DNA of 64,000 nucleotides from Candidatus Kaiserbacteria bacterium (GTDB lineage Bacteria; Patescibacteriota; Minisyncoccia; Phycocordibacterales; UBA2100), in assembly GCA_023267655.1 (NCBI GenBank), contig JAHFMV010000003.1:16522-80521 (forward strand). The letters are read 5' to 3'. The notes below the pieces were generated by a model that was not told the DNA's origin, searched no databases, and saw only the letters and a program-made list of their open reading frames with translations. The position numbers and the translations under genes were made by a program. Below, piece by piece: positions 1,174 to 63,413 of this stretch (position 1 is its first letter; each line of letters opens with the position of its first letter).

Positions 1174-2694
1174 CTACTGCTCGCGCCACAGCACCAGCTT
1201 GTAATCCACCGAAGCCGAAGGCGTAAACGCCGGCGGCGAAAATGCGAGGAGGCGATCGTACGTATCAATGCGTTGCGCAAAGCCCGAGCAGTACGTGCCG
1301 CTGCACGTCCACTGCGTCCCAATGCGGCCGTTCGAAACCACGGTGCCGATCGTCGTCAGCTGCGTCTGTTTTACATACGACGTATACGCGCTCGGCACCG
1401 CGTTATTGCCTGTTTCTGCGTAATAATTCCTCCCGAAATATCCCGACTGCGCGACAAAAATCCCGCGCACGGTCATCATATCCGGCGATACCAGAGGAAT
1501 CGTTACCGATCGCTCGGCGATTGCGGTGAGGCCGCTGGAGCCCGTACCGGAAGAATATGTGATGTTATTTTGCAAAATAATATCCGGCGTATACGCGCCG
1601 GTATCGGCCGCAACCACCGTCACTTTGTTCCCCACGATGCCTTCGAGCCACGTCTTCGCTTGTACATAAATGATAGGACAGCCCGAGGGAATCGTGTAGT
1701 GACCTTGGTACGTCTCACTGGTGATGATGTCGTAGTCCGTCGCCCACGAGCCCGGATTATCGGTATGCACACTGTAGACGCCTTGCGTACCCGTCACGCG
1801 ATATACATCTATTGTATTGTCGGCATTTAATTTTACGTGGTAGCCGCGCTGGTCGGAGGCTCCAACAGAACTAAACGTCCCGCCCTGCTGCGAACCGCCA
1901 ACTTTCACGCGATCGATATCCAGAAGGATGCCTGTGGAGTTCGCGTAACCCCGCAGCGTGGCAAAGTTGGTCGCGATGCCCGCAAAATTAAATGACGCAA
2001 CGTTCGGTGCCCATGACCAGAGTGCAGAACCTGACCCCGAACCCCACACGCCGTTTTTGCTCTGCGTCGGCGAGCAGCCGAACGATGAATCGCACGACCA
2101 TGTCGCAACCGCGCTCTGCACGGTGGAATTGGTTGTGCCATCCATGCGAATGCCGCCGTTTGAAAAATACGGACCCGATATGACACGATCGGCACCCGCC
2201 CACACATTCGCATTGAGAAGCGCGGAATATTCTCCGACCGACGGTCGCATGTAGCGTGCGTTTAAGGTGCGCGTGAAGACAACTGACTGATCGGATTTCC
2301 CGACCGACGTGAGATCAACCCATTGCACCACTCCGCACTGCAAATTCGCTGTCGCGGTGATCGTCGATTCGCCGAGGCGGCTCGCTTCCGGATCATTGAC
2401 GATGTACGTATAGGGCGACGTGAGGCCGACGCCCGCGTTCATAATCGAAGGATTGTGCGCGAGGAACCACCGATAGTATTCAAGTCCCGCTTCGGAAATG
2501 TTAAATGCCTGCTCGCGCGCATTGAGCGCGCGGCCGTACTTCCCCTGTGTAAGCACATAACTCATGATCGTGGCGAGAAGAAAGAGAAAGATGCCCATGA
2601 ATGCAAGGACGAGCATGACGGTCACGCCGCGGGAGTAGCGTCGAGCGTCAAGCGTCGAGCTGCGAGACTTTTCTGCTTGCGTTGTGTATATCAT
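1174..2694 (-). CDS. PilX-like type IV pilus minor pilin / large pseudopilin (506 aa)
   Basis: N-terminal hydrophobic helix VMLVLAFMGIFLFLLATIMSYVL typical of the PilX N-domain; large Gly/Ser/Thr-rich extracellular region; clusters with pilB/pilC. Confidence 0.55.
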   Translation of the reverse strand: MIYTTQAEKSRSSTLDARRYSRGVTVMLVLAFMGIFLFLLATIMSYVLTQGKYGRALNAREQAFNISEAGLEYYRWFLAHNPSIMNAGVGLTSPYTYIVNDPEASRLGESTITATANLQCGVVQWVDLTSVGKSDQSVVFTRTLNARYMRPSVGEYSALLNANVWAGADRVISGPYFSNGGIRMDGTTNSTVQSAVATWSCDSSFGCSPTQSKNGVWGSGSGSALWSWAPNVASFNFAGIATNFATLRGYANSTGILLDIDRVKVGGSQQGGTFSSVGASDQRGYHVKLNADNTIDVYRVTGTQGVYSVHTDNPGSWATDYDIITSETYQGHYTIPSGCPIIYVQAKTWLEGIVGNKVTVVAADTGAYTPDIILQNNITYSSGTGSSGLTAIAERSVTIPLVSPDMMTVRGIFVAQSGYFGRNYYAETGNNAVPSAYTSYVKQTQLTTIGTVVSNGRIGTQWTCSGTYCSGFAQRIDTYDRLLAFSPPAFTPSASVDYKLVLWREQ

Positions 2695-2731
2695 ATGGAT
2701 TTCCTTGAAGCTTGACGCTCGTAGCTCGAAG

Positions 2732-3382
2732 CTACTTTAGATTCCTCAGCGCGGCTGTTGAGCGCAGGGTGAATTGGTTCGGCAACCGATTCGGATTGAT
2801 GTTAACGACGATCGTCGCTTGGACGAACCGCACTTCCGCGATTTTCGAGAGATCATTCATGAGCGTGCCATTCTGATCATAATACTGGAACATCAAGACA
2901 TTCTGTTCCGTGTTGCGCACATTGTCAGAAACGGTTGAGATCGTCTCCGGATTGGTATAAACCGGCGGATCGCTTGACGGATCAATGACACCGCGCATCA
3001 GAGAATTTCCTTGGAGAAAGAACCGCACTTGCTCGAGAAACGCATCGTCGTCAATGTCCGCATAAAATGAAAAGCTCGAGGTCGCCATCGAAATGATCGG
3101 CCACGCGCCATTCGAGGAATACGCGGCCTCGCGAATGGTCTTGATCATGCTCTCCATGCCGTGTTGCCCCGACGTGATCGCCGCGCCTTGCTCGACGGTG
3201 TACGTATTGGTGCGATAAAACGCTTGTACGGTTTGCGTGATCGCGAGCATGATCATCGTCGTGATCGCGACCCACACCATCGTTTCGAGCAAACTGATGC
3301 CACGGGAAGCGCGGCAGCCACTAGCGACTAGCCAATAGCCACTAGGGGAATGCTTGGATGCTTTTTTGATTTTGGATTTCAT
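2732..3382 (-). CDS. type IV pilin-like protein with prepilin-type leader (RG|ISLLETMVWVAITTMIMLAI)
   Basis: Class III signal-peptide motif G-ISLLE followed by a hydrophobic helix. The unusually long 28-aa leader is partly encoded by the TAGCCACTAG repeat. Confidence 0.6.
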   Translation of the reverse strand: MKSKIKKASKHSPSGYWLVASGCRASRGISLLETMVWVAITTMIMLAITQTVQAFYRTNTYTVEQGAAITSGQHGMESMIKTIREAAYSSNGAWPIISMATSSFSFYADIDDDAFLEQVRFFLQGNSLMRGVIDPSSDPPVYTNPETISTVSDNVRNTEQNVLMFQYYDQNGTLMNDLSKIAEVRFVQATIVVNINPNRLPNQFTLRSTAALRNLK

Positions 3383-3407
3383 ACTAGTGGCTAGTCGCTA
3401 GTGGCTA
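3317..3407. repeat. inverted pair of family-A repeats (agccactagcgactagccaatagccactagg 3317-3346; ctagtggctagtcgctagtggcta 3384-3407) bracketing the pilin start codon at 3380-3382
   Basis: Read directly from the sequence; same motif family recurs at 11480, 22043, 33670/33774, 40515/40553, 55017/55085. Confidence 0.7.
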
Positions 3408-3411
3408 ATTC

Positions 3412-5175
3412 CTAATTTAGTATCACCGAAAGCCGCGAGGTCCCCGAGACATTCACGGTGGTTGATGTATACGTCGTATAGCCGGCCGCAGAGACACTAA
3501 TAGAGTACGCATTACCGCTTCCCGACGTGCCCGATGCCATGTTCGTAAAGAATGATTGTCCGCAGCTATCAGCGAGAATGGTGGTATTTGATGCAGGCGC
3601 TATGGCGCGATACACGTGCACGCTTGCGTTTGGAATCGCAGCACCCGCCGCATTTTTCACATCGACCAGAAGCGAATTAGTCGTATGCGGCGAGACATAC
3701 AAAAGCGTCGTCACGCTCGCGCTGGGCGCGACGACAACCGGCTGCGTGCTACACGACGACGAAATGTCGTACCCCGTTGCGGAAGCAACGCTTAACGTAT
3801 ACGAGTCGTATTCAACATTCGAAATTGTCACCGACCCTGGCGCGCCTGTTGATTGCGCCTGATTATATTTATAGACAGGACCACTTGGCCCGCTGCCGAT
3901 CGTCTTTGCGCCTTGCATCGTAAAGGCAAGATTTGAAAGTGAAAGCGGCCCCGAGTCATTGGAGATTGCCCATGAATCGATCGATGGCGTGTTTGATGCG
4001 TTCGATGTGGTGAGCGTTGCATGTACGGCAAGCGCGAGATACGTCGAGGTCGAGACATTACTCAAATCAATCGACGCAGCTGAAAGCCCCGCCGCGTTCC
4101 CCGGGATCTGCGCATCGGGAATGAGTGATGTGCCGGAAGAATCATAAAAACGGAACAGGATATTCGTGGAGGCAGGTTGTGCGCCAACCCATGTAAAAGT
4201 CCGCCACGATTGCATCGTCGTCGTCGAGAGCGGGATTGATATCAACATGCCTGCGCTCGGATAGCCGCTCCCACCGCCGCTCGTCAGCTGCGCGACGCCG
4301 GATGCGACGGTGATATTCGTACTCGACGCGATGACGTTTGCATTTGAGAACGGTTCCGTTGACGTGGCACGCGCGATCGGCGTAAATGATTGCACGTTCA
4401 ATGATCCGAGCGTATCGATCGCAAATGTCGATGCGGTTGTTTGATTCAGAGCGACCCCCAGATGCGCTGGTGTCGGATTCGTGTTCGTCGACGATGCGCT
4501 GTAGGTCTGCGCGCTCGAATAACCAGATTTACTGACGGTGATCTGATACCCCGCTCCTGCAGGCGCCCCCACAATGCTCGCATTCCCCGCCGTGTCCGTA
4601 TAAGTCGTAAGATCGACCGCGGGCGAGACGCCCGCATTCACGATGCGCACTTGTGCGTCTTGCACGGCTTGTCCTGTCGCGTCCGCTGCCTGTATTGAAA
4701 TCGTGCCGCCGGGGACTGATGTCTCGACACCGGTCGGCGGCGTCAGGCGCGTGACCATCGTGATCGTGCGCGTACCCTGCCGTGTTGTCCACGAGACAGA
4801 AACCTTTGCCGCCTTAAAATCTTCCGGTATGTGGTTGGTATCCGCCGCGCCCGTGCCGTCGCCTGCGTCATCTTCGTAATCGATAAAGGTGCGTCGTGTG
4901 TAATTCACATCATTCAGTGCCACACTCTCGCTCTGTGGAATAGTTCCGGAGGGAATACCACTCACGGTTCCGACGGAATTATAGGAAAGCGAGCGAATGT
5001 ATTCGAGCCTTTCATTCGCGAGAGCGATCGCGCCCGCACGCGCTTTGTTATTCGACACCACGTCAACCGCAAGCCGAAACGCGCCGACGATGCCGACGAA
5101 CACAACAATCATGAGCGCCGAACCAACAACGACATCCAAAAGCGTCGAGCCCCGTTCCCCTTCGCGGCCATGCAT
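3412..5175 (-). CDS. large pseudopilin / minor pilin-like protein (587 aa) with prepilin-type N-terminus (G|STLLDVVVGSALMIVVFVGIV)
   Basis: N-terminal class III leader-like motif plus hydrophobic helix; Thr/Ser-rich extracellular domain; pilus locus context. Confidence 0.55.
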   Translation of the reverse strand: MHGREGERGSTLLDVVVGSALMIVVFVGIVGAFRLAVDVVSNNKARAGAIALANERLEYIRSLSYNSVGTVSGIPSGTIPQSESVALNDVNYTRRTFIDYEDDAGDGTGAADTNHIPEDFKAAKVSVSWTTRQGTRTITMVTRLTPPTGVETSVPGGTISIQAADATGQAVQDAQVRIVNAGVSPAVDLTTYTDTAGNASIVGAPAGAGYQITVSKSGYSSAQTYSASSTNTNPTPAHLGVALNQTTASTFAIDTLGSLNVQSFTPIARATSTEPFSNANVIASSTNITVASGVAQLTSGGGSGYPSAGMLISIPLSTTTMQSWRTFTWVGAQPASTNILFRFYDSSGTSLIPDAQIPGNAAGLSAASIDLSNVSTSTYLALAVHATLTTSNASNTPSIDSWAISNDSGPLSLSNLAFTMQGAKTIGSGPSGPVYKYNQAQSTGAPGSVTISNVEYDSYTLSVASATGYDISSSCSTQPVVVAPSASVTTLLYVSPHTTNSLLVDVKNAAGAAIPNASVHVYRAIAPASNTTILADSCGQSFFTNMASGTSGSGNAYSISVSAAGYTTYTSTTVNVSGTSRLSVILN

Positions 5176-5876: not shown

Positions 5877-7133
5877 CTAGATATTGTCCGAGAGTTGGTA
5901 GATCGGGCTGATCATCGCGACTGCAAAGAAGCCGACGGCTGCACCGATCGCAAGCATAAGGAATGGCTCAATGATCGTCGACATGTCTTTCGTCTTCCGA
6001 TCCACTTCGTCTTCGTAAAAGACTGCAAGCTTTTTCATCATCTCGGTCAACTGCCCTGTCTCTTCGCCGACCGCAATCATCTCGCCCACAAATGCCGGGT
6101 ATAAATGCTCCGCGCGCACAAAAGCGCTCGAGAGCGGCTCACCTTTTGAAATATTTTCCTTCGCCTGCCCGATGACTTTCTTGAAATAATGATTCTGCAC
6201 AACGTCTTGCACGATCTCGAGCGAGGTCACCACATCCACGCCGCTCGAGAGAAGCGACGCGAGTGTCCGCGCCGTGCGCGCCGCATTCACCTCTTTCACG
6301 ATCGGCCCAATGATCGGAATGTGCAAAAAGACGAAATCCTTTGCGCGCCCGCCCGCTTCAGTGCGAAGCGCGGTATAGATGCCCCCGACGCCGATTATGA
6401 GAATTGAGAACGCAAGAATCGTGTACTCGACGAGGAAATTCGATACCGCGATGATTGCGCGGGTCGAAGCCGGCAGTTGCGCCCCCATTTCCTTAAACGT
6501 CGAGGCAAGCGTCGGAACAACATTGATCATCATAAAGGTACCGATGCCGAGAATCGCACAGACGATGATGATCGGATAGAGCATCGCACCACGAATTTTC
6601 TTCTTCAAGACATACATCCGCTCCATCTGGTCGGAGGTGACGACGAGTGCTTGCGGCATCTCACCGCCTTCCTCGCCCGCGCGCACCATCGCGACAAACA
6701 GTTTGGAGAAAACATGCGGGAATTTTGCCGCAGCAGAATGCAGTGTCTCACCGCGGCGCACCGCGCCCGATAATTCCGCAACCACGCTGCCGAGCCGCGG
6801 GTTTTTCGTCTGGCGCTCTATGACCGCAAGTGCTCGCGCAAGCGAAAGTCCCGCAGAGAGCATCGCGCCCAAGTTGCGCGAGAAGAGAATCTTCTCGTAT
6901 TCCGGCACCGTCGTTATTTTTGAATTCCAATACTGGAGGCTGAAGACGCCGTGCCTCTTTTCTTCGTCAACCGCGAGGATGCGGCCGCCTTCATGCCGCA
7001 CTATTTCGTACAACTCAAACCGATCGCGCGCCTGCGCGGTCCCTTTATATACTTCCCCGTCGCTTTTTTCCGCCGTGTATGAAAATCTCGCCACAGAATC
7101 AGTATACCGTATTCCGTATACAGTATTCCGCAA
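5877..7133 (-). CDS. pilC: type IV pilus assembly platform protein PilC (GspF family)
   Basis: Two GspF-type repeats and three TM segments; N-terminus ARFSYTAEKSDGEVYKGTAQARD typical of PilC. The first ~11 codons (TTG start at 7133) overlap an inverted-repeat arm, so the true start may be the GTG near 7094. Confidence 0.8.
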   Translation of the reverse strand: MRNTVYGIRYTDSVARFSYTAEKSDGEVYKGTAQARDRFELYEIVRHEGGRILAVDEEKRHGVFSLQYWNSKITTVPEYEKILFSRNLGAMLSAGLSLARALAVIERQTKNPRLGSVVAELSGAVRRGETLHSAAAKFPHVFSKLFVAMVRAGEEGGEMPQALVVTSDQMERMYVLKKKIRGAMLYPIIIVCAILGIGTFMMINVVPTLASTFKEMGAQLPASTRAIIAVSNFLVEYTILAFSILIIGVGGIYTALRTEAGGRAKDFVFLHIPIIGPIVKEVNAARTARTLASLLSSGVDVVTSLEIVQDVVQNHYFKKVIGQAKENISKGEPLSSAFVRAEHLYPAFVGEMIAVGEETGQLTEMMKKLAVFYEDEVDRKTKDMSTIIEPFLMLAIGAAVGFFAVAMISPIYQLSDNI

Positions 7134-7543
7134 AATGCACTATGTACGAATTCGATTTGGCGCCGTGCGGATTAATCCCGTCAACATTTGCGACACGGTT
7201 TCGGCTTTCTTTTCAAGTGCAGTAAAAGAATCGCGGGAAATATATTCCAAATCGCGTGCGATGAGTAACTGGCTCCTCAACTCTGAAAGTGAAGCGAGCG
7301 AAGTCGTATAAAAATTGATCTTGTCATTTTTCGTCTGCCGCACGAATCCCTCTGCAATATTTGAAGTAACAGAAACTGCGGCGCGGCGGATCTGACTGGT
7401 TAATCCGAAAAGTTCATCTTTTGGAAAAGTCTTGCTGGCTGTATATATCTCAAGAACAAGCGAGTGACCTTCTTGCCAAACACGTAAGTCCGTAAAACGC
7501 TGGATCATGGTGCGGTATACGGAATACTGTATACGGTATACGC
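7100..7543 (-). other. cassette: four-helix-bundle gene bracketed by ~31-bp inverted repeats (cagtataccgtattccgtatacagtattccg 7100-7130; gcggtatacggaatactgtatacggtatacgc 7512-7543) in the pilC-pilB intergenic position
   Basis: Arms are reverse complements over about 20 of 22 core positions. The right arm abuts the pilB stop (7544); the left arm overlaps the annotated pilC start. Confidence 0.65.
7140..7508 (-). CDS. four-helix-bundle protein of the 23S rRNA intervening-sequence protein family
   Basis: MIQRFTDLRVWQEGHSLVLEIY...AVSVTSNIAEGF matches the family's conserved N-terminal pattern (compare paralog at 54115). ORF-track start (GTG 7547) is encoded by the repeat arm, so ATG at 7506-7508 is preferred. 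Confidence 0.7.
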   Translation of the reverse strand: MIQRFTDLRVWQEGHSLVLEIYTASKTFPKDELFGLTSQIRRAAVSVTSNIAEGFVRQTKNDKINFYTTSLASLSELRSQLLIARDLEYISRDSFTALEKKAETVSQMLTGLIRTAPNRIRT

Positions 7544-9286
7544 TCACTCCGTAATCACACGCAACACCTCTTCAATAGTAGTAACTCCTTGCGAGGCTTT
7601 AAAAATCCCGTCTTCGATCATCGTGAGCATTCCCTCGCTGCGTGCTTGTTTTTCAATTTCATCCGCGGTCGCATTTTTCATCACATGCTCCTTAATGGTT
7701 GCAGTAACCGGGAGGACTTCATAGATACCGCGACGACCCGCGTACCCTTCCGGACACTCTGCCGTCGGCCCTGGTTTATAAAACGGCACGGTTTTCCAGG
7801 TCGCATTTGCGGCGACGATCTTCTCGTCTTTCAGTGCCTTGAGGACGACGCCGGCATCCAACGTGCTCTCAAGCTGCGTCTGTTCGTCGCGCGAGAGTTC
7901 GTACTTTTCGTGGCTTGGGCAGAGCATGCGCACGAGGCGCTGTCCTATGACAACGCGCAGAGTCGAGACGAGGAGGAACGGCTCGATGCCCATATCGAGG
8001 AGACGCGGGATGGCTCCTGCCGCAGAATTCGTGTGCAAAGTAGAAAGCACAAGGTGGCCGGTGAGCGCCGCATTGATCGCGAGTGATGCGGTTTCCTTAT
8101 CACGAATTTCCCCCACCATAATGATGTCGGGATCTTGGCGCACGAGCGAACGCAACCCGTTGGCAAACGTAAATCCAATATCCGGGCGCACCTGCGTCTG
8201 GTTCACCCGCTTCATTTGATACTCAATCGGATCTTCGACCGTGGAAATATTCACATCCGGCGTATTCAAAAGATCGAGAATCGTATAGAGCGTGGTGGAT
8301 TTGCCGGCGCCGGTCGGACCCGTCGTTAAGATGAGGCCGGTCGTTTGTTTCATCGCGCCATGCATTTGCTCCAAACCTGATCCGTGGAATCCGAGCGCTT
8401 CGAGCGAAAAGCCCGCGACATTATCACGCAAGAGGCGCATCACGATCTTTTCGCCGTAGTACGTCGGCAAAATAGAAACACGAAACGAAATTTTCTCACC
8501 GCCCGCTTCGACGCCAAAGCGTCCGTCCTGCGGCAATCTTTTTTCATCGAGCCGCATGTTGCCGAGGACTTTAATGCGCGCAGTGATTGCGGGCGCAGCG
8601 TGTTTCGGCAATTCCATCGCATCATGCAAGATGCCGTCGATGCGGTAACGGATGAGGAGCGATTCTTCGAGAGGCTCGATATGGATATCAGATGCATTTT
8701 GCGCGTTCGCGTGGCGCAAGAGCGTATCAACGATGCGCACAGCACTCACTCCCTCCGCCATCTGTCGCAAGTCTTCTTGCTTTGCGTCCGCACTTCCTGT
8801 TTTCGCAAGCGCATCGGTCTCGCGCTTGATGACATCGCCGAGATTGTCTTTGAGACCACGCTGGTACTGCTTGAGTGCGAGTTTCACCGACGCAGCGTCA
8901 GTGAGACGCGGCAAGATTTTCAAATGCGTTTTCTTCTTAATGAAATCGATCGCGGCGAGATCGTCAGTATCGAGCATCGCCACCTCGAGCTGCTCGTCTT
9001 TGTGGCTGTAGGCAATGATCGAATTGTGCCTTGCGACCGGTTCGGGAATGAGGGAGAGCGTTTCAAATGGAATCTGCTGCCCTGCGAGCGAGACAAACGG
9101 GATGCCGAGGATGTATGCGTAGGTGCGACGCAGTTCGTCCTCGCCAATTTTATTCTCCGCGATGAGAATATCCCCAATCGGTTTCCCGCGCTCTTTCGCC
9201 TCACGCTCGGCGGCCTCAAAATCTTTGTTCGAGATGAGCCCCGCGTCGGCGAGAAACGATTTTAAATGGGTATCAGAAATGTACAT
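7544..9286 (-). CDS. pilB: type IV pilus assembly ATPase PilB (GspE family)
   Basis: N-terminal GspII-type domain, Walker A GPTGAGKSTTLY, Walker B and His-box regions; 580 aa. Confidence 0.9.
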   Translation of the reverse strand: MYISDTHLKSFLADAGLISNKDFEAAEREAKERGKPIGDILIAENKIGEDELRRTYAYILGIPFVSLAGQQIPFETLSLIPEPVARHNSIIAYSHKDEQLEVAMLDTDDLAAIDFIKKKTHLKILPRLTDAASVKLALKQYQRGLKDNLGDVIKRETDALAKTGSADAKQEDLRQMAEGVSAVRIVDTLLRHANAQNASDIHIEPLEESLLIRYRIDGILHDAMELPKHAAPAITARIKVLGNMRLDEKRLPQDGRFGVEAGGEKISFRVSILPTYYGEKIVMRLLRDNVAGFSLEALGFHGSGLEQMHGAMKQTTGLILTTGPTGAGKSTTLYTILDLLNTPDVNISTVEDPIEYQMKRVNQTQVRPDIGFTFANGLRSLVRQDPDIIMVGEIRDKETASLAINAALTGHLVLSTLHTNSAAGAIPRLLDMGIEPFLLVSTLRVVIGQRLVRMLCPSHEKYELSRDEQTQLESTLDAGVVLKALKDEKIVAANATWKTVPFYKPGPTAECPEGYAGRRGIYEVLPVTATIKEHVMKNATADEIEKQARSEGMLTMIEDGIFKASQGVTTIEEVLRVITE

Positions 9287-9294
9287 AGGGATGA

Positions 9295-9362
9295 GGTTCT
9301 AGGTTCTAGGTTCTAGGTTCTAGGGAATCCGAAGTCCTCTGCAACCTTGCACCTTAAACCTG
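9295..9362. repeat. tandem heptamer (GGTTCTA x ~4.5) plus a family-B-like segment, 9 nt upstream of the pilB start codon
   Basis: gaggttctaggttctaggttctaggttctaggg then ctctgcaaccttgcaccttaaacctgacacctaa. On the pilB coding strand this reads CCTAGAACCT x4 immediately before the ATG. Confidence 0.65.
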
Positions 9363-9456
9363 ACACCTAATTTGTCATGCGCAGATTGATTATAGCAAGA
9401 TTTGGATGTAAGGTTGCGGCAGTCGCCACAGGGTCGCGACAAACAGGGAGATTCAC

Positions 9457-40514: not shown

Positions 40515-40575
40515 TTAGCCACTAGCCACTAGGGGAAAGGCGGACTGAATTTCCTATTGGCTAGTGGCTAGTGGC
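40515..40575. repeat. inverted pair of family-A repeats (ttagccactagccactagggg / cctattggctagtggctagtggc) with 17-bp spacer
   Basis: Read directly; ends 24 nt before the ATG at 40600. Confidence 0.7.
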
Positions 40576-53462: not shown

Positions 53463-54077
53463 ATGTCCGACGATAAGAAAACTTTGGATGTTGAACTAAA
53501 GGAACGCTTTGCTCAACTTCCTAAAGTTGTACAAAATGCAATTACCTCAGCAGAGGTTGAAAAATTACTGCGGAGCTTGGCTGATACTCAAAAATTACAT
53601 TTGGATCAGTGGCAATCCTTGGAAAACGAAGTCATGATGGCGTTACTGGGCGTACAACCCATTGGAAATTTACAAGAAAACATCGGTAAGGAAGTTGGGG
53701 TGAGCGCTGATGTAGCTAAAACGCTCGCAGAAAATATCAACAAAATCGTCTTCGAACCCATTCGCCAAGAACTCGAACGCCAGCTAGAGCATCCGGAGGC
53801 GCAAGCGAAGCAGGTGAGTACCATTGAGGCGGCGCGGGCAGAGACGCTTGCGGGGGCGCAGCCGGCAGCCGGGAGCCAGCAGCCGGGAGCTAATTCAGAA
53901 TCCGCTCCGAGCTCCGGGCTACAGGCTCCAAGCTCGGTTCTACCGGCAACACCACCATCGCTCGTGCCTGACATAAAAGTCACGCGCCCCTCTGAATCAA
54001 CCGCCTATAAACCGGGCGAACCATCAACACAGCGCGCCGCGGTGCACGACGACCCGTATCGGGAGCCGCCACTCTAG
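53463..54077 (+). CDS. hypothetical protein (204 aa)
   Basis: ORF only; its stop overlaps the left arm of the IVS cassette. Confidence 0.4.
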   Translation: MSDDKKTLDVELKERFAQLPKVVQNAITSAEVEKLLRSLADTQKLHLDQWQSLENEVMMALLGVQPIGNLQENIGKEVGVSADVAKTLAENINKIVFEPIRQELERQLEHPEAQAKQVSTIEAARAETLAGAQPAAGSQQPGANSESAPSSGLQAPSSVLPATPPSLVPDIKVTRPSESTAYKPGEPSTQRAAVHDDPYREPPL

Positions 54078-54510
54078 GTGACAGGTTCCAGGTGTCAGGT
54101 TTTAGGGAAAATACATGGATAAAATTCGATCGTACAAAGATCTTATTGTTTGGCAGAAAGCGATTGGCGTTGTCACTGACGTGTATCTAACGACCAAGAA
54201 ATTTCCTTCAGAAGAGCGATTTGGACTTTCTTCACAAATGCAACGCGCGGCTGTTTCGATAGCTGCAAACATTGCAGAAGGACACGGGCGTGGAACACGA
54301 AGTGACTATGCTCACTTTTTGGATATGTCAAATGGCTCGGTATCCGAATTGGAGACGCTCTTCATCATTGTCAGAAAACTATCATATTGTTCGGACGAAC
54401 AATGTAGTAAAATAGAAGGACAGTTACATGAAGTTGGGAAGATGCTTGGATCTCTCCGAAGTAAGTTACGTGTTCGCCCCTAGCACCTAGAACCTAACAC
54501 CTGGAACCTA
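54074..54510 (+). other. cassette: four-helix-bundle gene bracketed by family-B inverted repeats (aggttccaggtgtcaggttttagg 54084-54107 versus cctagaacctaacacctggaacct 54485-54508)
   Basis: Arms are reverse complements at ~20 of 22 positions. The insert 54108-54484 is almost exactly the 369-bp gene. Confidence 0.7.
54115..54483 (+). CDS. four-helix-bundle protein of the 23S rRNA intervening-sequence protein family (second copy)
   Basis: MDKIRSYKDLIVWQKAIGVVTDVY...AAVSIAANIAEGHGR parallels the 7140-7508 paralog. Confidence 0.7.
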   Translation: MDKIRSYKDLIVWQKAIGVVTDVYLTTKKFPSEERFGLSSQMQRAAVSIAANIAEGHGRGTRSDYAHFLDMSNGSVSELETLFIIVRKLSYCSDEQCSKIEGQLHEVGKMLGSLRSKLRVRP

Positions 54511-54515
54511 ATTCT

Positions 54516-55022
54516 ATGCAATTCCAAGTTCCCCAGTTCATTGAGGTCGAGGACAAGATCTTTGGGCCTCTCACCTTCAAACAATTCGTCTACATCGCAG
54601 GAGGCGCCGGCTGCGGCTATCTGCTGTGGCGCGTTCTTCCTATTTACCTCGCCGCCCCCCTTATCGCCGGCGTCGTCGGCCTCGGCGCGGGGTTGGCCTT
54701 CTTCAAATACAACGGCCAGCCCTTTATCCTCGCCCTCGAGCATGGTTTTTTCTTCTTTGTACGCAGCAAGCTCTACCTCTGGAGCAATGAAGTGCGCGAT
54801 ACTACGAAAAAGAAAGATCTCGCGGCACAAATAGCCGCTCCCGCAGCACAGATTTACGTCCCGAAGCTCTCCGACGGCAAGCTGCACGAGCTCGCGTGGA
54901 GTCTCGACATCAAAGAGCGCATCGCAGGAGGAACTGCCGATGACGACGAGCGCGCAGACAGCTCACCACTGAAGGGCATCATCGCGCCCGTCCGTACCGC
55001 GCGTGAGGCGCTCATTAACTAG
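54516..55022 (+). CDS. PrgI-family (VirB3-like) T4SS membrane protein
   Basis: MQFQVPQFIEVEDKIFGPLTFKQFVYIAGGAG followed by two TM helices matches the PrgI family N-terminal pattern. Confidence 0.55.
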   Translation: MQFQVPQFIEVEDKIFGPLTFKQFVYIAGGAGCGYLLWRVLPIYLAAPLIAGVVGLGAGLAFFKYNGQPFILALEHGFFFFVRSKLYLWSNEVRDTTKKKDLAAQIAAPAAQIYVPKLSDGKLHELAWSLDIKERIAGGTADDDERADSSPLKGIIAPVRTAREALIN

Positions 55023-55115
55023 CCAATAGCCACTAGGTATTTGCCACTAGAAAATGCATATGAATCCAAAAATTTCCTTAATGTATTGGCCAGTGGCTAG
55101 TCGCTAGTGGCTAAT
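55017..55115. repeat. inverted pair of family-A repeats (taactagccaatagccactagg ... attggccagtggctagtcgctagtggctaat) ending 10 nt before the ATG at 55126
   Basis: Read directly; the spacer contains CATATGAAT..TTCC, also seen in the 55820-55850 spacer. Confidence 0.7.
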
Positions 55116-55125
55116 AACTATTTTT

Positions 55126-55800
55126 ATGCCTGAAACCGTCACCTCAACAAAGCCGACCAGCAAATCGACACAGCAATTTGTGCCGGTTTCCGAAGTGCGC
55201 GACGGTATCTTGATCCTCAAGGACAAGAGCCTGCGTGCGATCCTTCTTGCGTCGTCGATCAATTTTGCGCTTAAATCTGAAGACGAACAGACGGCGTTTA
55301 TCGTGCAATTCCAAAACTTTCTCAACTCGCTCGACTTTTCGTGCGAAATTTTCGTGCAATCGCGCATGCTCGACATCCGCCCGTACATTGCATCCCTCGA
55401 GGTCGCCTACAAAGGGCAGCTCGACGACCTTATGCGCATCCAAATTCGCGAATACATCGAATTCATCAAGAGCTTTACCGAGGCCGCGAACATCATGACG
55501 AAAAATTTCTTCGTCGTCGTCCCGTATTCGTCGACGGCGATTTCGCTTTCCGGCAGTGGCGGCATCGCGGGGAAATTACCGTTTGGACGCAAAAAAAATA
55601 CGGCAGAGGATGCGAACCGTTCGTTTGAAGAGCAGGTCTCACAGCTTGAGCAACGCATTTCGATCGTGCAGCAGGGTCTCGTGCGCTGCGGCGTACGCAC
55701 CGTGCAGCTTGGAACCGAAGAGGCGATCGAACTGATGTACAAACTCTTCAACCCGGGCGAAGAAGGGAAGCCGATGACGCTGGATGCAGGTGCCAGGTGA
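55126..55800 (+). CDS. VirB4/TrsE-like N-terminal domain encoded as a separate ORF
   Basis: FVPVSEVRDGILILKDKSLRAILLASSINFALKSEDEQ resembles the N-terminus of Gram-positive-type VirB4 ATPases; stop codon lies inside a family-B repeat arm. Confidence 0.45.
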   Translation: MPETVTSTKPTSKSTQQFVPVSEVRDGILILKDKSLRAILLASSINFALKSEDEQTAFIVQFQNFLNSLDFSCEIFVQSRMLDIRPYIASLEVAYKGQLDDLMRIQIREYIEFIKSFTEAANIMTKNFFVVVPYSSTAISLSGSGGIAGKLPFGRKKNTAEDANRSFEEQVSQLEQRISIVQQGLVRCGVRTVQLGTEEAIELMYKLFNPGEEGKPMTLDAGAR

Positions 55801-55879
55801 CAGGTTCCAGGTTACAGTAAAATATAAATACAATACATCATATGAATTTCCTAGAACCTAACACCTGGAACCTGTAACC
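55794..55879 (+). repeat. family-B inverted pair (ggtgacaggttccaggt 55796-55812 / acctggaacctgtaacc 55861-55877) with 48-nt AT-rich loop, separating the two VirB4 ORFs
   Basis: 17-bp stem with one mismatch; forward arm CCTAGAACCTAACACCTGGAACCT ends 5 nt before the ATG at 55882. Confidence 0.65.
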
Positions 55880-55881
55880 TT

Positions 55882-58800
55882 ATGGCTTTATTGGATCTTT
55901 TCAAAAAATCTTCGGTCCCCGCGGCGACGGTGCTGCCGGTCCTTCCGGAAGAAATCTACCGCACTGGCGTCCTCGGCCTCCAGGACGTGATCGCACCGCA
56001 CGCACTTCGCGTCTCGCCGCGCGAGCTCGACCTTGGCGAAAAAATCGCGCGCACGTTTTTTGTGATCTCATACCCGCGCTTCCTCACGACGGGGTGGTTT
56101 GCGCCGATCATCAACATGGACAAGGTGCTCGACATCGCGATTTTCATCCATCCGATGGACACGAACGAAATGCTGCGCAAATTTCAGAAAAAAGTCGCCG
56201 AGGTGCAAAGTCAGATCGCGACGCGTGAGGAAAAGGGGATGGTGCGCGACCCAATGCTCGATACCGCATATCAAGACCTCGAAAAATTGCGCGACTCTCT
56301 GCAACAAGCGCAGGAACGCATTTTTGATGTCGGACTCTACCTCACGATCTACGGCTCGAGCCGCGAAGAAATAGATAAGGTAGAGAGCGAAATCCGCTCG
56401 ATCCTCGAGAGCCGCCTCGTGTACATCCGCCCGGCACTTTTCCAGCAAGAACAAGGCTTCCGCTCGACGCTCCCGATTGCGACCGATGAATTAAACGTCC
56501 ACACGAAACTCAATTCGGCGCCGCTCTCGTCCATCTTCCCGTTTATTTCATTCGACCTAACGTCCGACAGGGGAATCCTTTACGGCATCAACCGCCACAA
56601 TTCGTCACTTATTTTGTTCGATCGATTTTCTTTGGAGAATTATAATTCGGTCACTTTCGCAAAGTCGGGAGCAGGTAAGAGCGTCTGCTACGAAGAGCCC
56701 GTTTTGACACGTGAAAGCGGAATCATACGTTATGCGCCAATTGGTCAAGTGGTGGAAAAAACTATTAAAAAACATGGTTGCAGAAAGATTGACGACGAGT
56801 TAGAGGGAGTTATCGATCCGGGTATTGAAGTGTTCAGTTTTGATCAAGACATGCGGGGGCGTTGGAGTAAAGTATCGGTCGCTGCACGAAAAGATGCCCC
56901 AGATACATACTACGCATTCAGGACAAAAAGCGGCCGCGAGGTAACAACTACTGCTGATCACAACATGCTAGTCTTACGACGCGGGAAAGTTATTGCCGCG
57001 AAAAGTGAAAATGTGAAAGAGGGAGAGTATATTCCTCTGCCGCGCAGCGTGCATCCATCCCTGCACTCCCCCCGTCATATAGGATCTAGCCTCTTGCCGG
57101 TAACAGAACATCTCAGTTCTGTCCTTGGTTGGATCGCAGCAGAAGGGACTATCGCGAAACGCTCGATCATTATCAGCAACACCGATCAGGAATCACTGTC
57201 ACACATTGAAAATGAATGTCGAGCCCTCGGTTTTTCCTGCGGCAGCAACAAGCGGTGGGTTGCCATTTATGGCAAACGTGTCTGTGAACAGCTAAAAGCC
57301 CTTGGCGCAACGGGAAAATCCGGTACTAAAACAGTCCCCGGATTTCTTTTTAACACGTCGCGCGATGTGGTCGCCTCATACCTGCAAGCGTATTTCGAAG
57401 GTGATGGCGGTGTAGAAAATCACGAAATTACTGCGCTTTCAAAGTCGAAAGAGCTGATATCAGGGCTTTCGTATTTGTTGTACTACTTCGGCATTATTGC
57501 GCGGATACAGAAGCGGCAGAAGAAATACGCGAAGACGGGACGCAAAAGGACATTCTGGATGCTTAGCATTTCAGGTCAGGATAATATCCGGAAATTCCAA
57601 GAGCACATCGGCTTTATTTCGACGCGAAAAAAGGAGGCCCTCGCGAAAATCGCCGTTAAAAACGGAAATACCAACTGCGATATCGTGCCGGGACTACAAC
57701 CGCTTGCGAAAGAGCTTGAACTCCTTTTCGATACGCAGCTGTCGGACATATCCGACTTCTCCGCGCTCAAGCAGGGTCACGGCCTCTCGCCGACTCGGCT
57801 CGGAACACTTGTCGATACAATGGAGGCGCGCGTGCGGCGGTTCAAGGACTTGTATCCTTTCATGCAGAAATTGCAGGATCTGCCGACTGTTGAAGCGATT
57901 ATCAAAAAAGCTGATGGAGATCGCGATTTGAATCACAGGCTTATTGAAACAATGAGCAGCTCATGGTTTACGGTCAAGCAAGGAATGCCACCACGAACGA
58001 AAAATGCGCTGAAAATCTTTGAAACTGCAGGTGTCGAAGCTCCAAAAACCATCGACGAATTAAAGGGGATGGTGGAGAGCGGCGTCTCGAATTTGCGCGT
58101 CCCGAGGAGCGATTTTGATGAGTACCTTACGAGATCCCTGCATGGTACTCGCGACAATTCGTCGTACGAACTCCTACGCACCGCATCACAATTTATTTTT
58201 TGGGAGTACCGCCGCACGCTACACAACTTGCATCGCGTCGAAGAAATCATCGCTATGTTTAAGACGCTCGTGAACGCCGACCTTTTCTGGGATCCGATTG
58301 TTTCTATCGTGAAAAAGGCCAACAAAAAAGACAAGTATGTATACGACCTCACCGTTGACGACGAAGTGTTCCTCGCGGGACACGGCGGCATGTTCGTGCA
58401 CAATTCATATACGACGAAGCTTGAGATTCTGCGCTCTTTAATGTTCGATACGGAAGTCATCGTCATCGACCCGGAACGCGAATACGAATATCTCGCGACG
58501 ACCGTCGGCGGCCGCTACTTCAACATTTCACTCTCCTCCGAACACCATATCAATCCGTTTGATCTCCCCATCCCACGTGAAGACGAGAACCCCGGCGACA
58601 TTTTGCGCAACAACATCATTACGCTCGTTGGCCTCTTCCGCATCATGCTCGGCGGACTTACGCCAGAAGAGGACGCCGTCATCGACAAGGCGATTACGGA
58701 AACCTACGCACTCAAAGACATTACGCAAGACGCGAATTTCGCCTCTATCGAGCCGCCGCTCCTCTCCGACTTTGAACTGGTCTTAAGCGGCATGGAAGGA

Positions 58801-59685
58801 TCAGAATCACTCGTCGCGCGCCTTTCGAAATATACGAAAGGCACGTGGTCGGGATTCATGAACCGCCCGACCAACGTCGATATGAACAAAAAACTTACGG
58901 TCTTTTCCGTGCGCGATATGGAAGATGATTTGAAGCCGGTCGCGATGTACATCATTACACACCACATTTGGAACACGGTAAGGAAAGAACTGCGAAAGCG
59001 CCTGCTTGTGATCGACGAGGCGTGGTGGATGATGAAATCGCAAGACACGGCGAGCTTCCTTTTCGGTATTGCAAAGCGCGGCCGTAAATACTATCTCGGT
59101 CTCTCGACGATTACGCAGGACGTCAACGACTTTCTCACCTCACCGTACGGCGCGGCGATGATCACGAACTCATCAATTCAGCTCCTTCTGCGCCAATCAC
59201 CGACGTCGGTTGATCTTGTACAAAGCACGTTCAAATTGACTGATGAAGAAAAGTATTTGCTCCTCGAATCCGACGTGGGGGAGGGGATTTTCTTCGCCGG
59301 ACTGAAGCATGTTGCCATCAAAGTCATCGCCTCGTACACCGAAGACCAAATCATTACCTCCGATCCGTCGCAAATCCTCGCTATCAAGAAAGCAAAAATG
59401 GATCTCGCTTCTGCAAACGATACAAGCGCACCTGCCGCACCACGACAGAGCGCCGCTGATATCTTAAAAGCCGCGGCCATGAAGGAATCGAGCGGTATCG
59501 CGCAGCAGGCCGCTACCGAGGCACTACCAACGCAAACACCAGCGGCAAGCACAGAATCCGACAATCCGCTTCCACCGCCCCCAACACCGACTCCTACTCC
59601 ACCGCCCTCGCCTGTCGCGCCTGCACCTGCGGCACCCACCGCGCCCTCGCTTCCACCCGAAGCAAATCCTGATCGTCCGGTATGA
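55882..59685 (+). CDS. VirB4/TraE-like T4SS ATPase (extein ~694 aa) interrupted by an in-frame 573-aa intein
   Basis: Walker A FAKSGAGKS immediately before the intein; C-extein SYTTKLEILRSL...LLVIDEAWWMMKS (DEAW Walker-B-like) and conserved VirB4 C-terminal region; Pro-rich tail. Confidence 0.8.
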   Translation: MALLDLFKKSSVPAATVLPVLPEEIYRTGVLGLQDVIAPHALRVSPRELDLGEKIARTFFVISYPRFLTTGWFAPIINMDKVLDIAIFIHPMDTNEMLRKFQKKVAEVQSQIATREEKGMVRDPMLDTAYQDLEKLRDSLQQAQERIFDVGLYLTIYGSSREEIDKVESEIRSILESRLVYIRPALFQQEQGFRSTLPIATDELNVHTKLNSAPLSSIFPFISFDLTSDRGILYGINRHNSSLILFDRFSLENYNSVTFAKSGAGKSVCYEEPVLTRESGIIRYAPIGQVVEKTIKKHGCRKIDDELEGVIDPGIEVFSFDQDMRGRWSKVSVAARKDAPDTYYAFRTKSGREVTTTADHNMLVLRRGKVIAAKSENVKEGEYIPLPRSVHPSLHSPRHIGSSLLPVTEHLSSVLGWIAAEGTIAKRSIIISNTDQESLSHIENECRALGFSCGSNKRWVAIYGKRVCEQLKALGATGKSGTKTVPGFLFNTSRDVVASYLQAYFEGDGGVENHEITALSKSKELISGLSYLLYYFGIIARIQKRQKKYAKTGRKRTFWMLSISGQDNIRKFQEHIGFISTRKKEALAKIAVKNGNTNCDIVPGLQPLAKELELLFDTQLSDISDFSALKQGHGLSPTRLGTLVDTMEARVRRFKDLYPFMQKLQDLPTVEAIIKKADGDRDLNHRLIETMSSSWFTVKQGMPPRTKNALKIFETAGVEAPKTIDELKGMVESGVSNLRVPRSDFDEYLTRSLHGTRDNSSYELLRTASQFIFWEYRRTLHNLHRVEEIIAMFKTLVNADLFWDPIVSIVKKANKKDKYVYDLTVDDEVFLAGHGGMFVHNSYTTKLEILRSLMFDTEVIVIDPEREYEYLATTVGGRYFNISLSSEHHINPFDLPIPREDENPGDILRNNIITLVGLFRIMLGGLTPEEDAVIDKAITETYALKDITQDANFASIEPPLLSDFELVLSGMEGSESLVARLSKYTKGTWSGFMNRPTNVDMNKKLTVFSVRDMEDDLKPVAMYIITHHIWNTVRKELRKRLLVIDEAWWMMKSQDTASFLFGIAKRGRKYYLGLSTITQDVNDFLTSPYGAAMITNSSIQLLLRQSPTSVDLVQSTFKLTDEEKYLLLESDVGEGIFFAGLKHVAIKVIASYTEDQIITSDPSQILAIKKAKMDLASANDTSAPAAPRQSAADILKAAAMKESSGIAQQAATEALPTQTPAASTESDNPLPPPPTPTPTPPPSPVAPAPAAPTAPSLPPEANPDRPV
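56686..58404 (+). mobile_element. intein with LAGLIDADG homing-endonuclease domain inserted in the VirB4 P-loop
   Basis: Block A CYEEPVLTRESGIIRYAPIGQVV (Cys1 at 56686), block B TTTADHNMLV, DOD motifs LGWIAAEGTI and LQAYFEGDGGV, block F/G KYVYDLTVDDEVFLAGHGGMFVHN followed by Ser+1 (58405). Confidence 0.75.
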
Positions 59686-63295: not shown

Positions 63296-63413
63296 CAGAT
63301 AATTTTCAATTCTCAATTTTCAGTGAATTTTCAATGTTCCAATGTTTGAAAATTGATTCATTCGAACTTGAATGAAAATTTGAAATTGATAATTGATAAT
63401 TGATAATTGAAAA
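63296..63413. repeat. AT-rich repetitive spacer (TTTTCAAT words, GATAATTGA x3 tandem, palindrome cattcgaacttgaatg) between yidC and jag
   Basis: Read directly from sequence. Confidence 0.6.

Follow-up and report, generated by a model that had tools for sequence, protein, structure and literature searches.

Why should a pilus operon carry, tucked between two of its genes, a small open reading frame wrapped in its own inverted repeats? In the window analysed here, a 64,000-nt stretch of a Candidatus Kaiserbacteria contig, the minus strand holds pilB (7544..9286 in the ORF list, a T2SSE/PilB ATPase matching Pfam PF00437 at E = 1.9e-123) and pilC (5877..7094, T2SSF, PF00482), and between them lies a gene for a protein of 122 aa (7140..7508, also on the minus strand, with ATG at 7508 and a TAG stop at 7142-7140). 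An earlier note, made from the letters alone, had drawn attention to this gene and the repeats at its ends, and its observation is confirmed as a whole, most of the features it described lying where it had placed them.

The enclosed gene encodes what it had been taken for, an IVS-family protein (IVP hereafter). Its product matches both PF05635 (E = 2.2e-38; 131 bits, cut-off 33.8) and TIGR02436 (E = 3e-36; 124 bits, cut-off 24), aligns over residues 8-115 with PDB entry 2GSC (E = 1e-17), agrees with the four-helix layout and carries the motif RxxxSxxxNxxEG, also noted for PF05635 proteins elsewhere (PMC3936711), with R42, S46, N50, E53 and G54 invariant in a 21-sequence alignment. The true start is the ATG at 7508, where MIQRFTDL is conserved in orthologs, and the residues SVYRIQYSVYR of the longer ORF translation are, as had been suspected, simply the arm read in frame. 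Purifying selection acts on the ORF, with dN of 0.13-0.24 between orthologs and a dS so saturated that no ratio is given. Considering that the homologs 2GSC and 2RLD each comprise five chains, and that a pentamer has been stated for IVS proteins (PMC4990558), IVP probably forms a homopentameric toroid. Avd, the accessory protein of diversity-generating systems (DGRs), is a homologous, pentameric, basic four-helix-bundle barrel, and one could imagine an Avd gene here that has split from its retroelement. The similarity is weak, at 31 bits for PF22296 and 31-43 bits for NF033474, under their cut-offs of 40 and 80 bits; moreover, whilst Avd has a reverse transcriptase and a TR/VR pair as its partners, the neighbours here are pilB and pilC, with no adjacent RT, TR or VR, and the same goes for the orthologs whose neighbours were compared, so that we regard this origin as extremely improbable.

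The repeats themselves are built of heptamers. On the transcribed strand the 5' arm (7512..7543, minus strand) reads GCGTATA CCGTATA CAGTATT CCGTATA CCGC, i.e. four units of GTATNCN; it directly follows the pilB TGA stop (7546-7544), as the earlier note had it, and ends 3-4 nt short of the IVP ATG. The 3' arm (7100..7131, minus strand) is the complementary array GCGGAAT ACTGTAT ACGGAAT ACGGTAT ACTG. The two are indeed reverse complements (7102-7137 against 7506-7541, 81-84% over 36-37 nt, rising to 95% in a core of 20 nt), both show a period-7 self-identity of 0.72-0.76, and both consist of at least three head-to-tail 7-nt units in non-coding DNA, as in the STRR-like class. The pattern GTATNNNGTATNNNGTAT has seven matches, all of them within the two arms and none marking a further copy of the GTAT-cassette arms in this 64-kb window, against a chance expectation of 0.03; heptamer tracts of any kind number 14 in the window and 0-1 in shuffles. 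As RNA, arm on arm gives a duplex of -53 kcal/mol with 38 pairs (shuffles -19 +/- 4), and the minimum free energy fold of the 476-nt transcript has the arms paired (z = -3.4). The arms are able to form a ~30-bp stem with precisely the IVP ORF in its loop. That such an arrangement should have arisen by accident, or through an error of assembly, is refuted by the count of pattern matches, and by the same cassette on independent assemblies and in six diverged orthologs; we found nothing in its favour.

One detail of the earlier account must be revised. The left arm had been said to cover the first ~11 codons of pilC, which would require a start at the TTG at 7133; this extension is a longest-ORF artefact, ruled out by the PilC N-terminus MARFxYTAEK, conserved among the relatives compared, and by independent gene calls on identical contigs, both of which give GTG 7094 as the start, 5 nt past the arm. 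Because pilC begins there, the arm at 7100-7131 is non-coding. The arms thereby produced false N-terminal extensions on both pilC and the IVP gene, which matters for the annotation of operons. On the minus strand around the cassette we found no promoters or terminators above the shuffle background, and the only Rfam families in the 64-kb window are four tRNAs, with no rRNA. The co-orientation of IVP genes with their neighbours was considered as a sign of promoter-less read-through and dropped, as values of 90% and 86% do not exceed the 83% baseline of adjacent genes in these genomes.

Is this, then, an insertion? The earlier note had called it a discrete cassette and suggested looking for an empty site in relatives, and such sites exist: at the pilB-pilC site eight related genomes have an empty junction of 4-10 nt, seven have an orthologous cassette, and others have unrelated fillings. 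Since relatives hold empty sites, the cassette is an insertion. The empty junctions contain no pre-existing hairpin, and the idea that the heptamer core derives from the target site was rejected, there being no consistent GTAT seed in them. On the PilC tree the empty, cassette and other states are interleaved, and the identities of the two proteins are incongruent (80% for PilC and 53% for IVP in ortholog L010; 56% and 71% in L006). Orthologs at the same site retain GTAT heptamers, and arms and IVP ORF are inherited together. Arm conservation lies far above the neutral expectation, at 93-100% (28-30 of 30-31 nt in orthologs L004-L006) compared with 28-40% at 4-fold synonymous sites, which are saturated. 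The arm duplex persists in 7/7 orthologs (-27 to -53 kcal/mol; shuffles -12 to -19), and compensation is seen as C>T / G>A in L006 and as GTATAAG/CTTATAC in L010. On the other side of the ledger, the comparison of filled with empty junctions gives no target-site duplication, and next to the cassettes examined there is no recombinase, transposase or integrase, the sole ORF of the cassette being PF05635; mobility is thus left without a mechanism, which counts against a selfish cassette.

The window contains a second, paralogous cassette (cassette 1; 54073..54512, plus strand), with a 5' arm at 54073-54107, an ORF at 54115-54483 and a 3' arm at 54479-54512. Its IVP is 40% identical to that at pilB-pilC, its 5' arm reads AGGTGAC AGGTTCC AGGTGTC AGGTTTT (AGGTNNN heptamers), the TAG stop of the upstream gene lies inside the arm, and the downstream gene starts with an ATG at 54516. 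It had been argued that two cassettes with unrelated arms tie the gene to stem-loop sites in general. The arm sequences do differ; however, they share one architecture, with ~4 tandem heptamers that each combine a constant core with 2-3 variable positions. The tie to generic stem-loops finds no support, given that the arms travel with the gene, that the empty sites held no hairpin beforehand and that the heptamer architecture is family-wide (see below). Identical arms without the gene, named in advance as evidence that would speak against the proposal if they were ordinary intergenic sequence, do occur for cassette 1: the ORF-less hairpin at 55785..55880 (plus strand) is identical to its arms over 18/18 and 24/24 nt in the same orientation, has a 33-nt loop and occupies a stop-to-start gap exactly. 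ORF-less hairpins sharing the core of a neighbouring cassette are also found at other loci, and such identical-arm hairpins are dispersed MITE-like copies of the same element type, not ordinary intergenic DNA. Further ORF-less hairpins in the window are one in the pilB 5' UTR (9286..9375, minus strand; AGGTTCT x4 plus complement, ending at the pilB ATG), which at this site in relatives is present, absent or different; one of RAGCGTC units (2633..2733); and three copies of a CTAGTGG family (3314..3418, 40515..40575 and 55019..55114), the last with the upstream gene's stop in its left arm.

Hairpins that sit so exactly in stop-to-start gaps, and even in the pilB 5' UTR, invite the thought that these are host intergenic RNA elements for processing, stability or translational coupling, with IVP as a trans-acting RNA-binding regulator housed in its own site and nothing mobile today. 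Such a domesticated post-transcriptional module would fit the long retention at one site, the purifying selection on ORF and arms, and the polarity of the arms relative to the ORF; heptamer arrays of Beggiatoaceae, which end 1 nt before start codons, have likewise been proposed as regulatory (PMC4679880). It sits badly with the presence/absence polymorphism at orthologous sites of close relatives, for cassette and ORF-less hairpins alike, with the dispersed copies with identical arms, with the incongruent divergence of IVP and PilC, and with IVP insertions in rRNA genes and cas operons. We consider it unlikely on balance.

How general is the design? In a survey of 80 loci, biased towards CPR genomes, a flanking heptamer tract accompanies 84% of 76 IVP genes as against 12.8% of 445 control ORFs, and the flanks form a median duplex of -29.8 kcal/mol in IVP genes and -19.5 in controls (p = 1e-14). 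Period 7 alone stands out, with a self-identity of 0.81 compared with 0.41-0.53 for other periods, and the median arm is 28 nt long - four units - and flush with ATG and stop. Looked at from the other side, paired arrays with interiors of 250-600 nt enclose an IVP gene in 59 cases out of 63; the four mid-size interiors without one, candidates for other cargo, proved to be ordinary host genes between two separate hairpins. The heptamer-arm design thus accompanies the IVP family in CPR bacteria, for the 76 genes tested. Beyond these, the design is matched by one or a few cases each in cyanobacteria, Kiritimatiellales, Ignavibacteria, Xanthomonas and Coxiella: cyanobacterial plasmid copies of IVP have it in 5/6 cases, the start codon of the Xanthomonas homolog XCC0516 is covered by a GGGAATC array of four units, a 129-nt GGGGATT array lies 55 nt upstream of Nostoc alr0549 (PMC4692102 supplement), and the S23p ORF of Coxiella is preceded by GACAGAT x3-4 and comes with a 28-bp stem, cut by RNase III in vitro (PMC4990558). 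Counting against it are Pseudanabaena (L116), where the flanking arrays are direct and not inverted, and Calothrix (L113), which has no arrays. We found no published statement of a general link between IVPs and heptamers, in a coverage of the literature that is incomplete, and an earlier description is possible.

The arms are also polar. On the sense strand the 5' arm is rich in G and purines (G>C in 35 of 39 arrays; purines >0.5 in 29 vs 8, p = 8e-4) and the 3' arm in pyrimidines (39 vs 10, p = 4e-5). An excess of G.U pairs on the sense strand was tried as proof of pairing in RNA and abandoned: a first count of 222 G.U against 25 A.C was biased by the method, and a symmetric test gives 129 vs 110 (p = 0.24), i.e. 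wobble without a sense-strand bias. As sense and antisense duplex energies do not differ either (p = 0.18), pairing at the level of RNA and of DNA is indistinguishable from these data. In a DNA-level element, the arms would serve a recombinase whose gene lies elsewhere (IS200/IS605-, RAYT- or integron-like), either as terminal inverted repeats or as hairpin sites of recombination, and IVP would be a passenger, e.g. for defence or addiction. Such an element would accommodate the symmetric wobble, the TIR-like geometry with MITE-like ORF-less copies, and the recurrence of IVP genes in defence neighbourhoods such as cas6-cas4. Yet no transposase or integrase accompanies any cassette examined and no target site is duplicated, arm polarity and arms flush with start and stop codons are unexpected for generic TIRs, and varied cargo would be predicted where 59/63 mid-size interiors are IVP and none is other cargo. 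We deem this improbable, more so than a domesticated module.

Amongst known systems, the nearest is the intervening sequence with an S23p ORF in the 23S rRNA of Coxiella burnetii, Leptospira and Brucella, which shares with the cassette a homologous PF05635 ORF and terminal inverted repeats that loop it out on a stem of ~28-30 bp. In Coxiella, GACAGAT tandem heptamers of variable copy number precede the ATG, and excision by RNase III has been shown (PMC4990558). The cassette differs in that it lies between protein genes of a pilus operon and not in a 23S/16S helix, in that ORF-less copies accompany it, and in that purifying selection on its ORF is clear, the one in Coxiella having been regarded as in decay. 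The published heptanucleotide repeats (cyanobacterial STRR, Xanthomonas GGGAATC, Nostoc GGGGAYT, Beggiatoaceae TAACTGA) are likewise intergenic, commonly lie near start codons and commonly form convergent pairs - Xanthomonas campestris has 186 GGGAATC arrays, 70 of them in such pairs (PMC4692102) - and two published examples flank IVP homologs; however, their studies link them to no protein family, and the units differ from GTATNCN and AGGTNNN. As for mobile elements, the terminal inverted repeats are those expected of a MITE or IS, while a target-site duplication and a cognate transposase are missing; and unlike an integron cassette with its single 3' attC, heptamer arms stand on both sides, with no array or integrase among the surrounding ORFs.

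Two further comparisons come from short repeats. Correia/NEMIS elements of Neisseria and similar MITEs are short intergenic inverted repeats, co-transcribed with their flanking genes, whose hairpins are cut by RNase III; unlike the cassette, they have no heptamer substructure and no associated protein gene, and they carry TA target duplications. In REP/REPIN-RAYT systems, one small gene lies between hairpin-forming repeats of its own, and many copies of these repeats without the gene are scattered through intergenic regions, an account that reportedly goes back to Nunvar 2010 and to Bertels and Rainey 2011. Cassette 1 resembles these as a flanked gene with a dispersed gene-less copy (55785-55880), and so does XCC0516, whose start is overlapped by one of the 186 arrays of X. 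campestris. The proteins are unlike, IVP being by analogy a four-helix-bundle pentamer without a Y1 (HUH) transposase domain and matching PF05635/TIGR02436, weakly Avd, in Pfam and NCBIfam; the repeats are unlike as well, with tandem heptamers of variable positions here and a fixed palindrome of 20-35 nt in REPs.

Taking these lines together, we lean, with a little more belief than doubt, towards an IVS-type selfish gene cassette that resides in an mRNA operon, outside rRNA. Its unit would be ~4 tandem heptamers, the IVP ORF and ~4 complementary heptamers, set exactly into the gap that separates the pilB stop from the pilC start. Transcribed together with pilB and pilC, the arms would pair in the RNA and bring the stop of pilB close to the GTG of pilC at the base of the stem; RNase III, which excises the rRNA IVSs of Coxiella, Leptospira and Salmonella (PMC4990558), could go on to cleave the stem, setting the IVP RNA free. 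Pentameric IVP probably binds the arms, to judge by Avd, whose pentamer binds a specific RNA stem-loop, each of the five protomers contributing the equivalent residues (bioRxiv 10.1101/2023.10.23.563531); perhaps roughly one heptamer would be held by each protomer or in each crevice between protomers. On this view the arms would serve IVP as cognate sites in cis, and the ORF-less hairpins as sites in trans, much like a RAYT gene and its REPs. Counting against this reading, four units per arm fit a pentamer only loosely, and the authors of the Coxiella study contended that S23p goes unexpressed in that organism (PMC4990558). The co-clustering of protein lineage with heptamer core (0.71 vs 0.29) was also weighed as evidence of recognition and set aside, as simple co-inheritance explains it equally well. 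If the cassette is what we think, intervening sequences would not be specific to rRNA, and would represent a general insertion cassette that fits into the few bases between translationally coupled genes, which bears on the annotation of operons and on the biology of CPR genomes.

Could the same proteins account for heptamer repeats at large? Two puzzles are decades old: the role of the S23p four-helix-bundle proteins, with thousands of copies and two crystal structures, and the over-representation of tandem heptanucleotide repeats in many bacterial genomes (PMC4990558, PMC4692102). We posit, tentatively and in the knowledge that it may well be wrong, that these repeats have their missing trans-acting partners in the IVS proteins of PF05635: the pentamer would read ~4-5 heptamers, about one per protomer, and the gene would sit inside its own inverted pair of arrays, giving REPIN/RAYT-like, phylum-spanning selfish or regulatory hairpins in rRNA, operon junctions and 5' UTRs. 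Protein family and repeats being physically coupled across phyla, the two puzzles would become one testable hypothesis, that of a pentamer on ~4-5 heptamers. The repeats that a trans-acting partner of this kind would cover are the STRR-type, Xanthomonas GGGAATC, Nostoc GGGGAYT, Coxiella GACAGAT and CPR GAAT/GTAT/GTAG arrays.

The cassette lies between pilB (7544-9286; PF00437, E = 2e-123) and pilC (from GTG 7094; PF00482), all on the minus strand. Its gene (7140-7508) encodes a 122-aa protein matching PF05635 '23S_rRNA_IVP' (E = 2e-38), here IVP, and is enclosed by two arms whose complementarity, already noticed by eye, was borne out: 7102-7137 matches 7506-7541 at 81-84% over 36-37 nt, and at 95% over a 20-nt core. 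This is far beyond chance, as the arm-to-arm RNA duplex reaches -53 kcal/mol (shuffles -19 +/- 4), the arms close around the ORF in the MFE fold of the 476-nt sense transcript (z = -3.4), and GTATNNNGTATNNNGTAT, with at most one mismatch, has 7 matches in the window, all within arms, against 0.03 expected. The stem in the window gains 8 extra pairs, linking the last pilB codons with the pilC GTG region, to which we attach little weight. Considering that MIQRFTDL, read from ATG 7508, is kept across orthologs, this is the true IVP start, and 'SVYRIQYSVYR' at the annotated N-terminus is simply the arm translated in frame, as the earlier note had read it. Of the two pilC starts that it left to be tested, the TTG in the arm (7133) has to be dropped, and with it the overlap of an arm with the annotated pilC ORF: the M-A-R-F-x-Y-T-A-E-K N-terminus of relatives corresponds to GTG 7094, also the start in gene calls on identical contigs, so that the arm is intergenic throughout, lying 5 nt before pilC, with the pilB stop directly adjoining on the other side. 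Known intervening sequences (IVSs) of rRNA combine an S23p ORF with terminal inverted repeats, and the cassette shares both.

A paralogous IVP gene (54115-54483, 40% identity), here cassette 1, carries its own arms at 54083-54106 and 54486-54509. The two sets of arms had been taken as unrelated in sequence, but this does not survive reading them in register: GTATACC GTATACA GTATTCC GTATACC (with the complement on the opposite side) in the cassette under study, and AGGTGAC AGGTTCC AGGTGTC AGGTTTT in cassette 1. Both sets are thus tandem heptamers, with self-identity of 0.64-0.76 at period 7 and 0.72-0.83 at period 14, and the arms are variations on one architecture.

This design is family-wide. 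Our survey covered 80 loci from species-representative genomes, collected by IVP profile; most are CPR/Patescibacteria, with one locus each labelled Kiritimatiellales, Ignavibacteria and Fimivivens, and some Gammaproteobacteria or Bdellovibrionales. A period-7 tract (28 nt with at least 15/21 period-7 matches) flanks 84% of 76 IVP genes and 12.8% of 445 control ORFs from the same loci, although, with spurious ORFs amongst the controls, genuine genes may have a somewhat higher background. The median flank-to-flank duplex is -29.8 kcal/mol for IVP genes and -19.5 kcal/mol for controls (p = 1e-14), and self-identity of IVP flanks is 0.81 at period 7, against 0.41-0.53 at the other periods from 4 to 11. 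Median arm length is 28 nt, or 4 units, with 3-5 units in most arms; the 5' array reaches the ATG or runs over it, and the distance from the stop codon's first base to the start of the 3' array has a median of 8 nt (IQR 4-16). Across 753 kb there are 296 heptamer arrays (5 in shuffles), and paired arrays fall into two classes, with interiors of 350-450 nt or loops of 0-100 nt; an IVP gene sits inside 59/63 interiors of 250-600 nt. The commonest cores (n=65) are GAAT (25), GTAT (23) and GTAG (8). Arrays have a consistent polarity: on the sense strand, G exceeds C in 35/39 5' arrays and purines exceed 0.5 in 29 vs 8 (p = 8e-4), whilst 3' arrays are pyrimidine-rich in 39 vs 10 (p = 4e-5). At three loci (L046, L093, L110) the frame holding the IVP match continues to 297-441 codons, which may reflect fusion, frameshift or a missed stop.

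The pilB-IVP-pilC arrangement recurs in other genomes (loci L004-L007, L010 and L085), with IVP homologs 51-83% identical, and further junctions were gathered by a scan for PilC relatives. The 'empty' junction sought in related genomes does exist, at 8 loci (L012, L013, L015, L016, L019, L024, L025, L030) where the pilB stop and pilC ATG are 4-10 nt apart. Elsewhere (L008, L009, L011, L014, L017, L018, L020, L021) the gap holds other fillings of ~500-1470 nt, whose small, unrelated ORFs (98, 113, 115, 130, 146, 155 and 261 aa) lie mostly on the opposite strand; amongst them, the 113-aa ORF is a DUF6197 protein and the 261-aa one TrmB-like HTH; a Pfam search of the remainder gave no match. The junction is a general insertion hot spot, and no target-site duplication is visible between filled and empty versions. 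IVP-filled, empty and otherwise-filled states interleave on a PilC neighbour-joining tree (drawn without support values), and divergence from the window is incongruent: PilC and IVP are 80% and 53% identical in L010, 56% and 71% in L006, and 77.5% and 83% in L004. These patterns indicate that the content of this one site was gained, lost or replaced repeatedly, not in a single ancient event.

Both ORF and arms are under selection. With dN of 0.13-0.24 and saturated dS amongst the window and L004-L007, the IVP protein is maintained; identity at four-fold synonymous sites is only 28-40%. Between the window and L004, L005 and L006, 28-30 of 30-31 nt of the non-coding arms are identical, so that the arm sequence itself is strongly constrained, beyond mere ability to pair. 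Pairing is retained in 7/7 orthologs (-27 to -53 kcal/mol; shuffles -12 to -19); amongst the few substitutions are a compensatory C>T / G>A in L006 and, in the more distant L010, GTATAAG/CTTATAC.

Gene-less versions of the arm architecture are present in the same genome. The window holds 14 period-7 tracts (0-1 in shuffles), most pairing into intergenic hairpins of inverted heptamer arrays without an ORF: 2633-2733 (RAGCGTC), 9286-9375 (AGGTTCT, immediately upstream of the pilB ATG), 55785-55880 (AGGTGAC), 63300-63417 (TGATAAT), and three CTAGTGG-type hairpins (3314-3418, 40515-40575, 55019-55114) that are dispersed copies of one another. The element at 55785-55880, oriented like cassette 1, matches its arms at 18/18 and 24/24 nt and has a 33-nt loop where cassette 1 has its gene; across the survey, the heptamer core of such hairpins is often that of the neighbouring cassette. 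A bolder reading, conceivable if somewhat doubtful, is that IVP is the heptamer-repeat protein, in a REPIN/RAYT-like partnership.

At several hairpins the stop codon of the preceding gene falls within one arm, and the hairpin runs up to the ATG of the gene that follows. A TATAAT-like box (CTTGCTATAATCAATC; 9376-9400, minus strand), conserved in L008, L015/16 and L019, precedes the pilB 5' UTR; the window and L015/16 have the hairpin between box and pilB ATG, L008 lacks it, and in L007, L019 and L085 other heptamers replace it. Just upstream of cassette 1, the period-7 tract GCAGCCG GGAGCCA GCAGCCG GGAGC... (53856-53935, plus strand), inside the coding region of ORF 53463-54077, may be coding low complexity or an array absorbed into the ORF. 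In L107 (5403-5446) a (GGAAAAT)n array extends into the 3' end of a ThyA-like ORF, translated as ...MENGKWKMENGK. The 1267-aa ORF at 55882-59685 (plus strand) is, by eye, presumably a VirB4/TraC-like ATPase interrupted by what we take to be an intein with a homing-endonuclease-like middle (...GAGKSV/CYEEPVL...VHN/SYTT).

How might the cassette work? No promoter- or terminator-like sites were found flanking it on the minus strand, so it is probably co-transcribed with pilB and pilC. In this shared transcript the arms would zip up into an RNase III substrate, by analogy with rRNA IVSs, for which cutting of the stem is experimental (PMC4990558); such processing could keep 450 nt of inserted sequence in a coupling spacer of 4-10 nt from affecting the host genes. 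Both PDB homologs of IVP have 5 chains and a homopentamer is stated for the family (PMC4990558; likewise the title of Lin 2006), from which we infer the same for IVP. In Avd, the homolog from DGRs, all five protomers contact an RNA stem-loop, and flipped-out bases enter inter-protomer crevices, where the same residues read them (bioRxiv 10.1101/2023.10.23.563531). By analogy, the IVP ring may read one heptamer unit per protomer, which would fit the ~4-unit run with its constant core and variable spacer positions, the sequence-level conservation of the arms, and the fixed array polarity. Such binding might be to RNA or to DNA, and a symmetric test of wobble pairs was null (129 vs 110); it might serve autoregulation, shielding from RNase III, or spread of the hairpins. 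TRAP and HutP, ring proteins that read periodic triplets, are precedents.

Within the searchable literature, the general heptamer-array architecture of IVP arms, their extreme conservation, exact insertion at an operon junction for which empty sites are documented, ORF-less derivatives, and a link between IVP and the so far unexplained heptanucleotide repeats found in Xanthomonas, Nostoc and other bacteria are all apparently undescribed. Heptamers were noted with an IVS once before, in Coxiella, where 3-4 GACAGAT units, varying in number by strain, precede the S23p ATG, and the 28-bp terminal stem is cut within by RNase III (PMC4990558). In X. campestris, supplementary repeat #15 of Rehm et al. 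(PMC4692102; GGGAATCGGGAGTGGAGAATCGGGAATC, 4 units) overlaps the XCC0516 start codon, in the gene of the IVP homolog whose crystal structure is 2GSC, and 186 arrays of this type include 70 in convergent pairs; their repeat #14 from Nostoc, a GGGGATT array of 129 nt, lies 55 nt upstream of alr0549, whose annotation reads 'four helix bundle protein'. These published data agree with the IVP-heptamer link, a connection their authors did not draw. IVP genes have also been noticed in CPR rRNA insertions and, outside rRNA, annotated. Our tblastn of plasmids with IVP gave mainly cyanobacterial matches, and arrays adjoin the IVP gene in 5/6 loci fetched: GGGAAAA in Geminocystis, GTCAGGA in Nostoc C052, GGGAGTA in N. 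edaphicum (between RNR genes), CAGGTGA in Anabaena sp. 90 (L112, 1498-1866) and long (CTAAAAG)n and (CCAAAAG)n arrays, direct and not inverted, in Pseudanabaena galeata (L116, 1504-1863); none stands beside the Calothrix gene (L113). In the CRISPR-Cas loci of L112, where cas1d follows, and L116, IVP lies between cas6 and cas4, echoing an earlier sighting of IVP genes within cas operons (PMC3936711).
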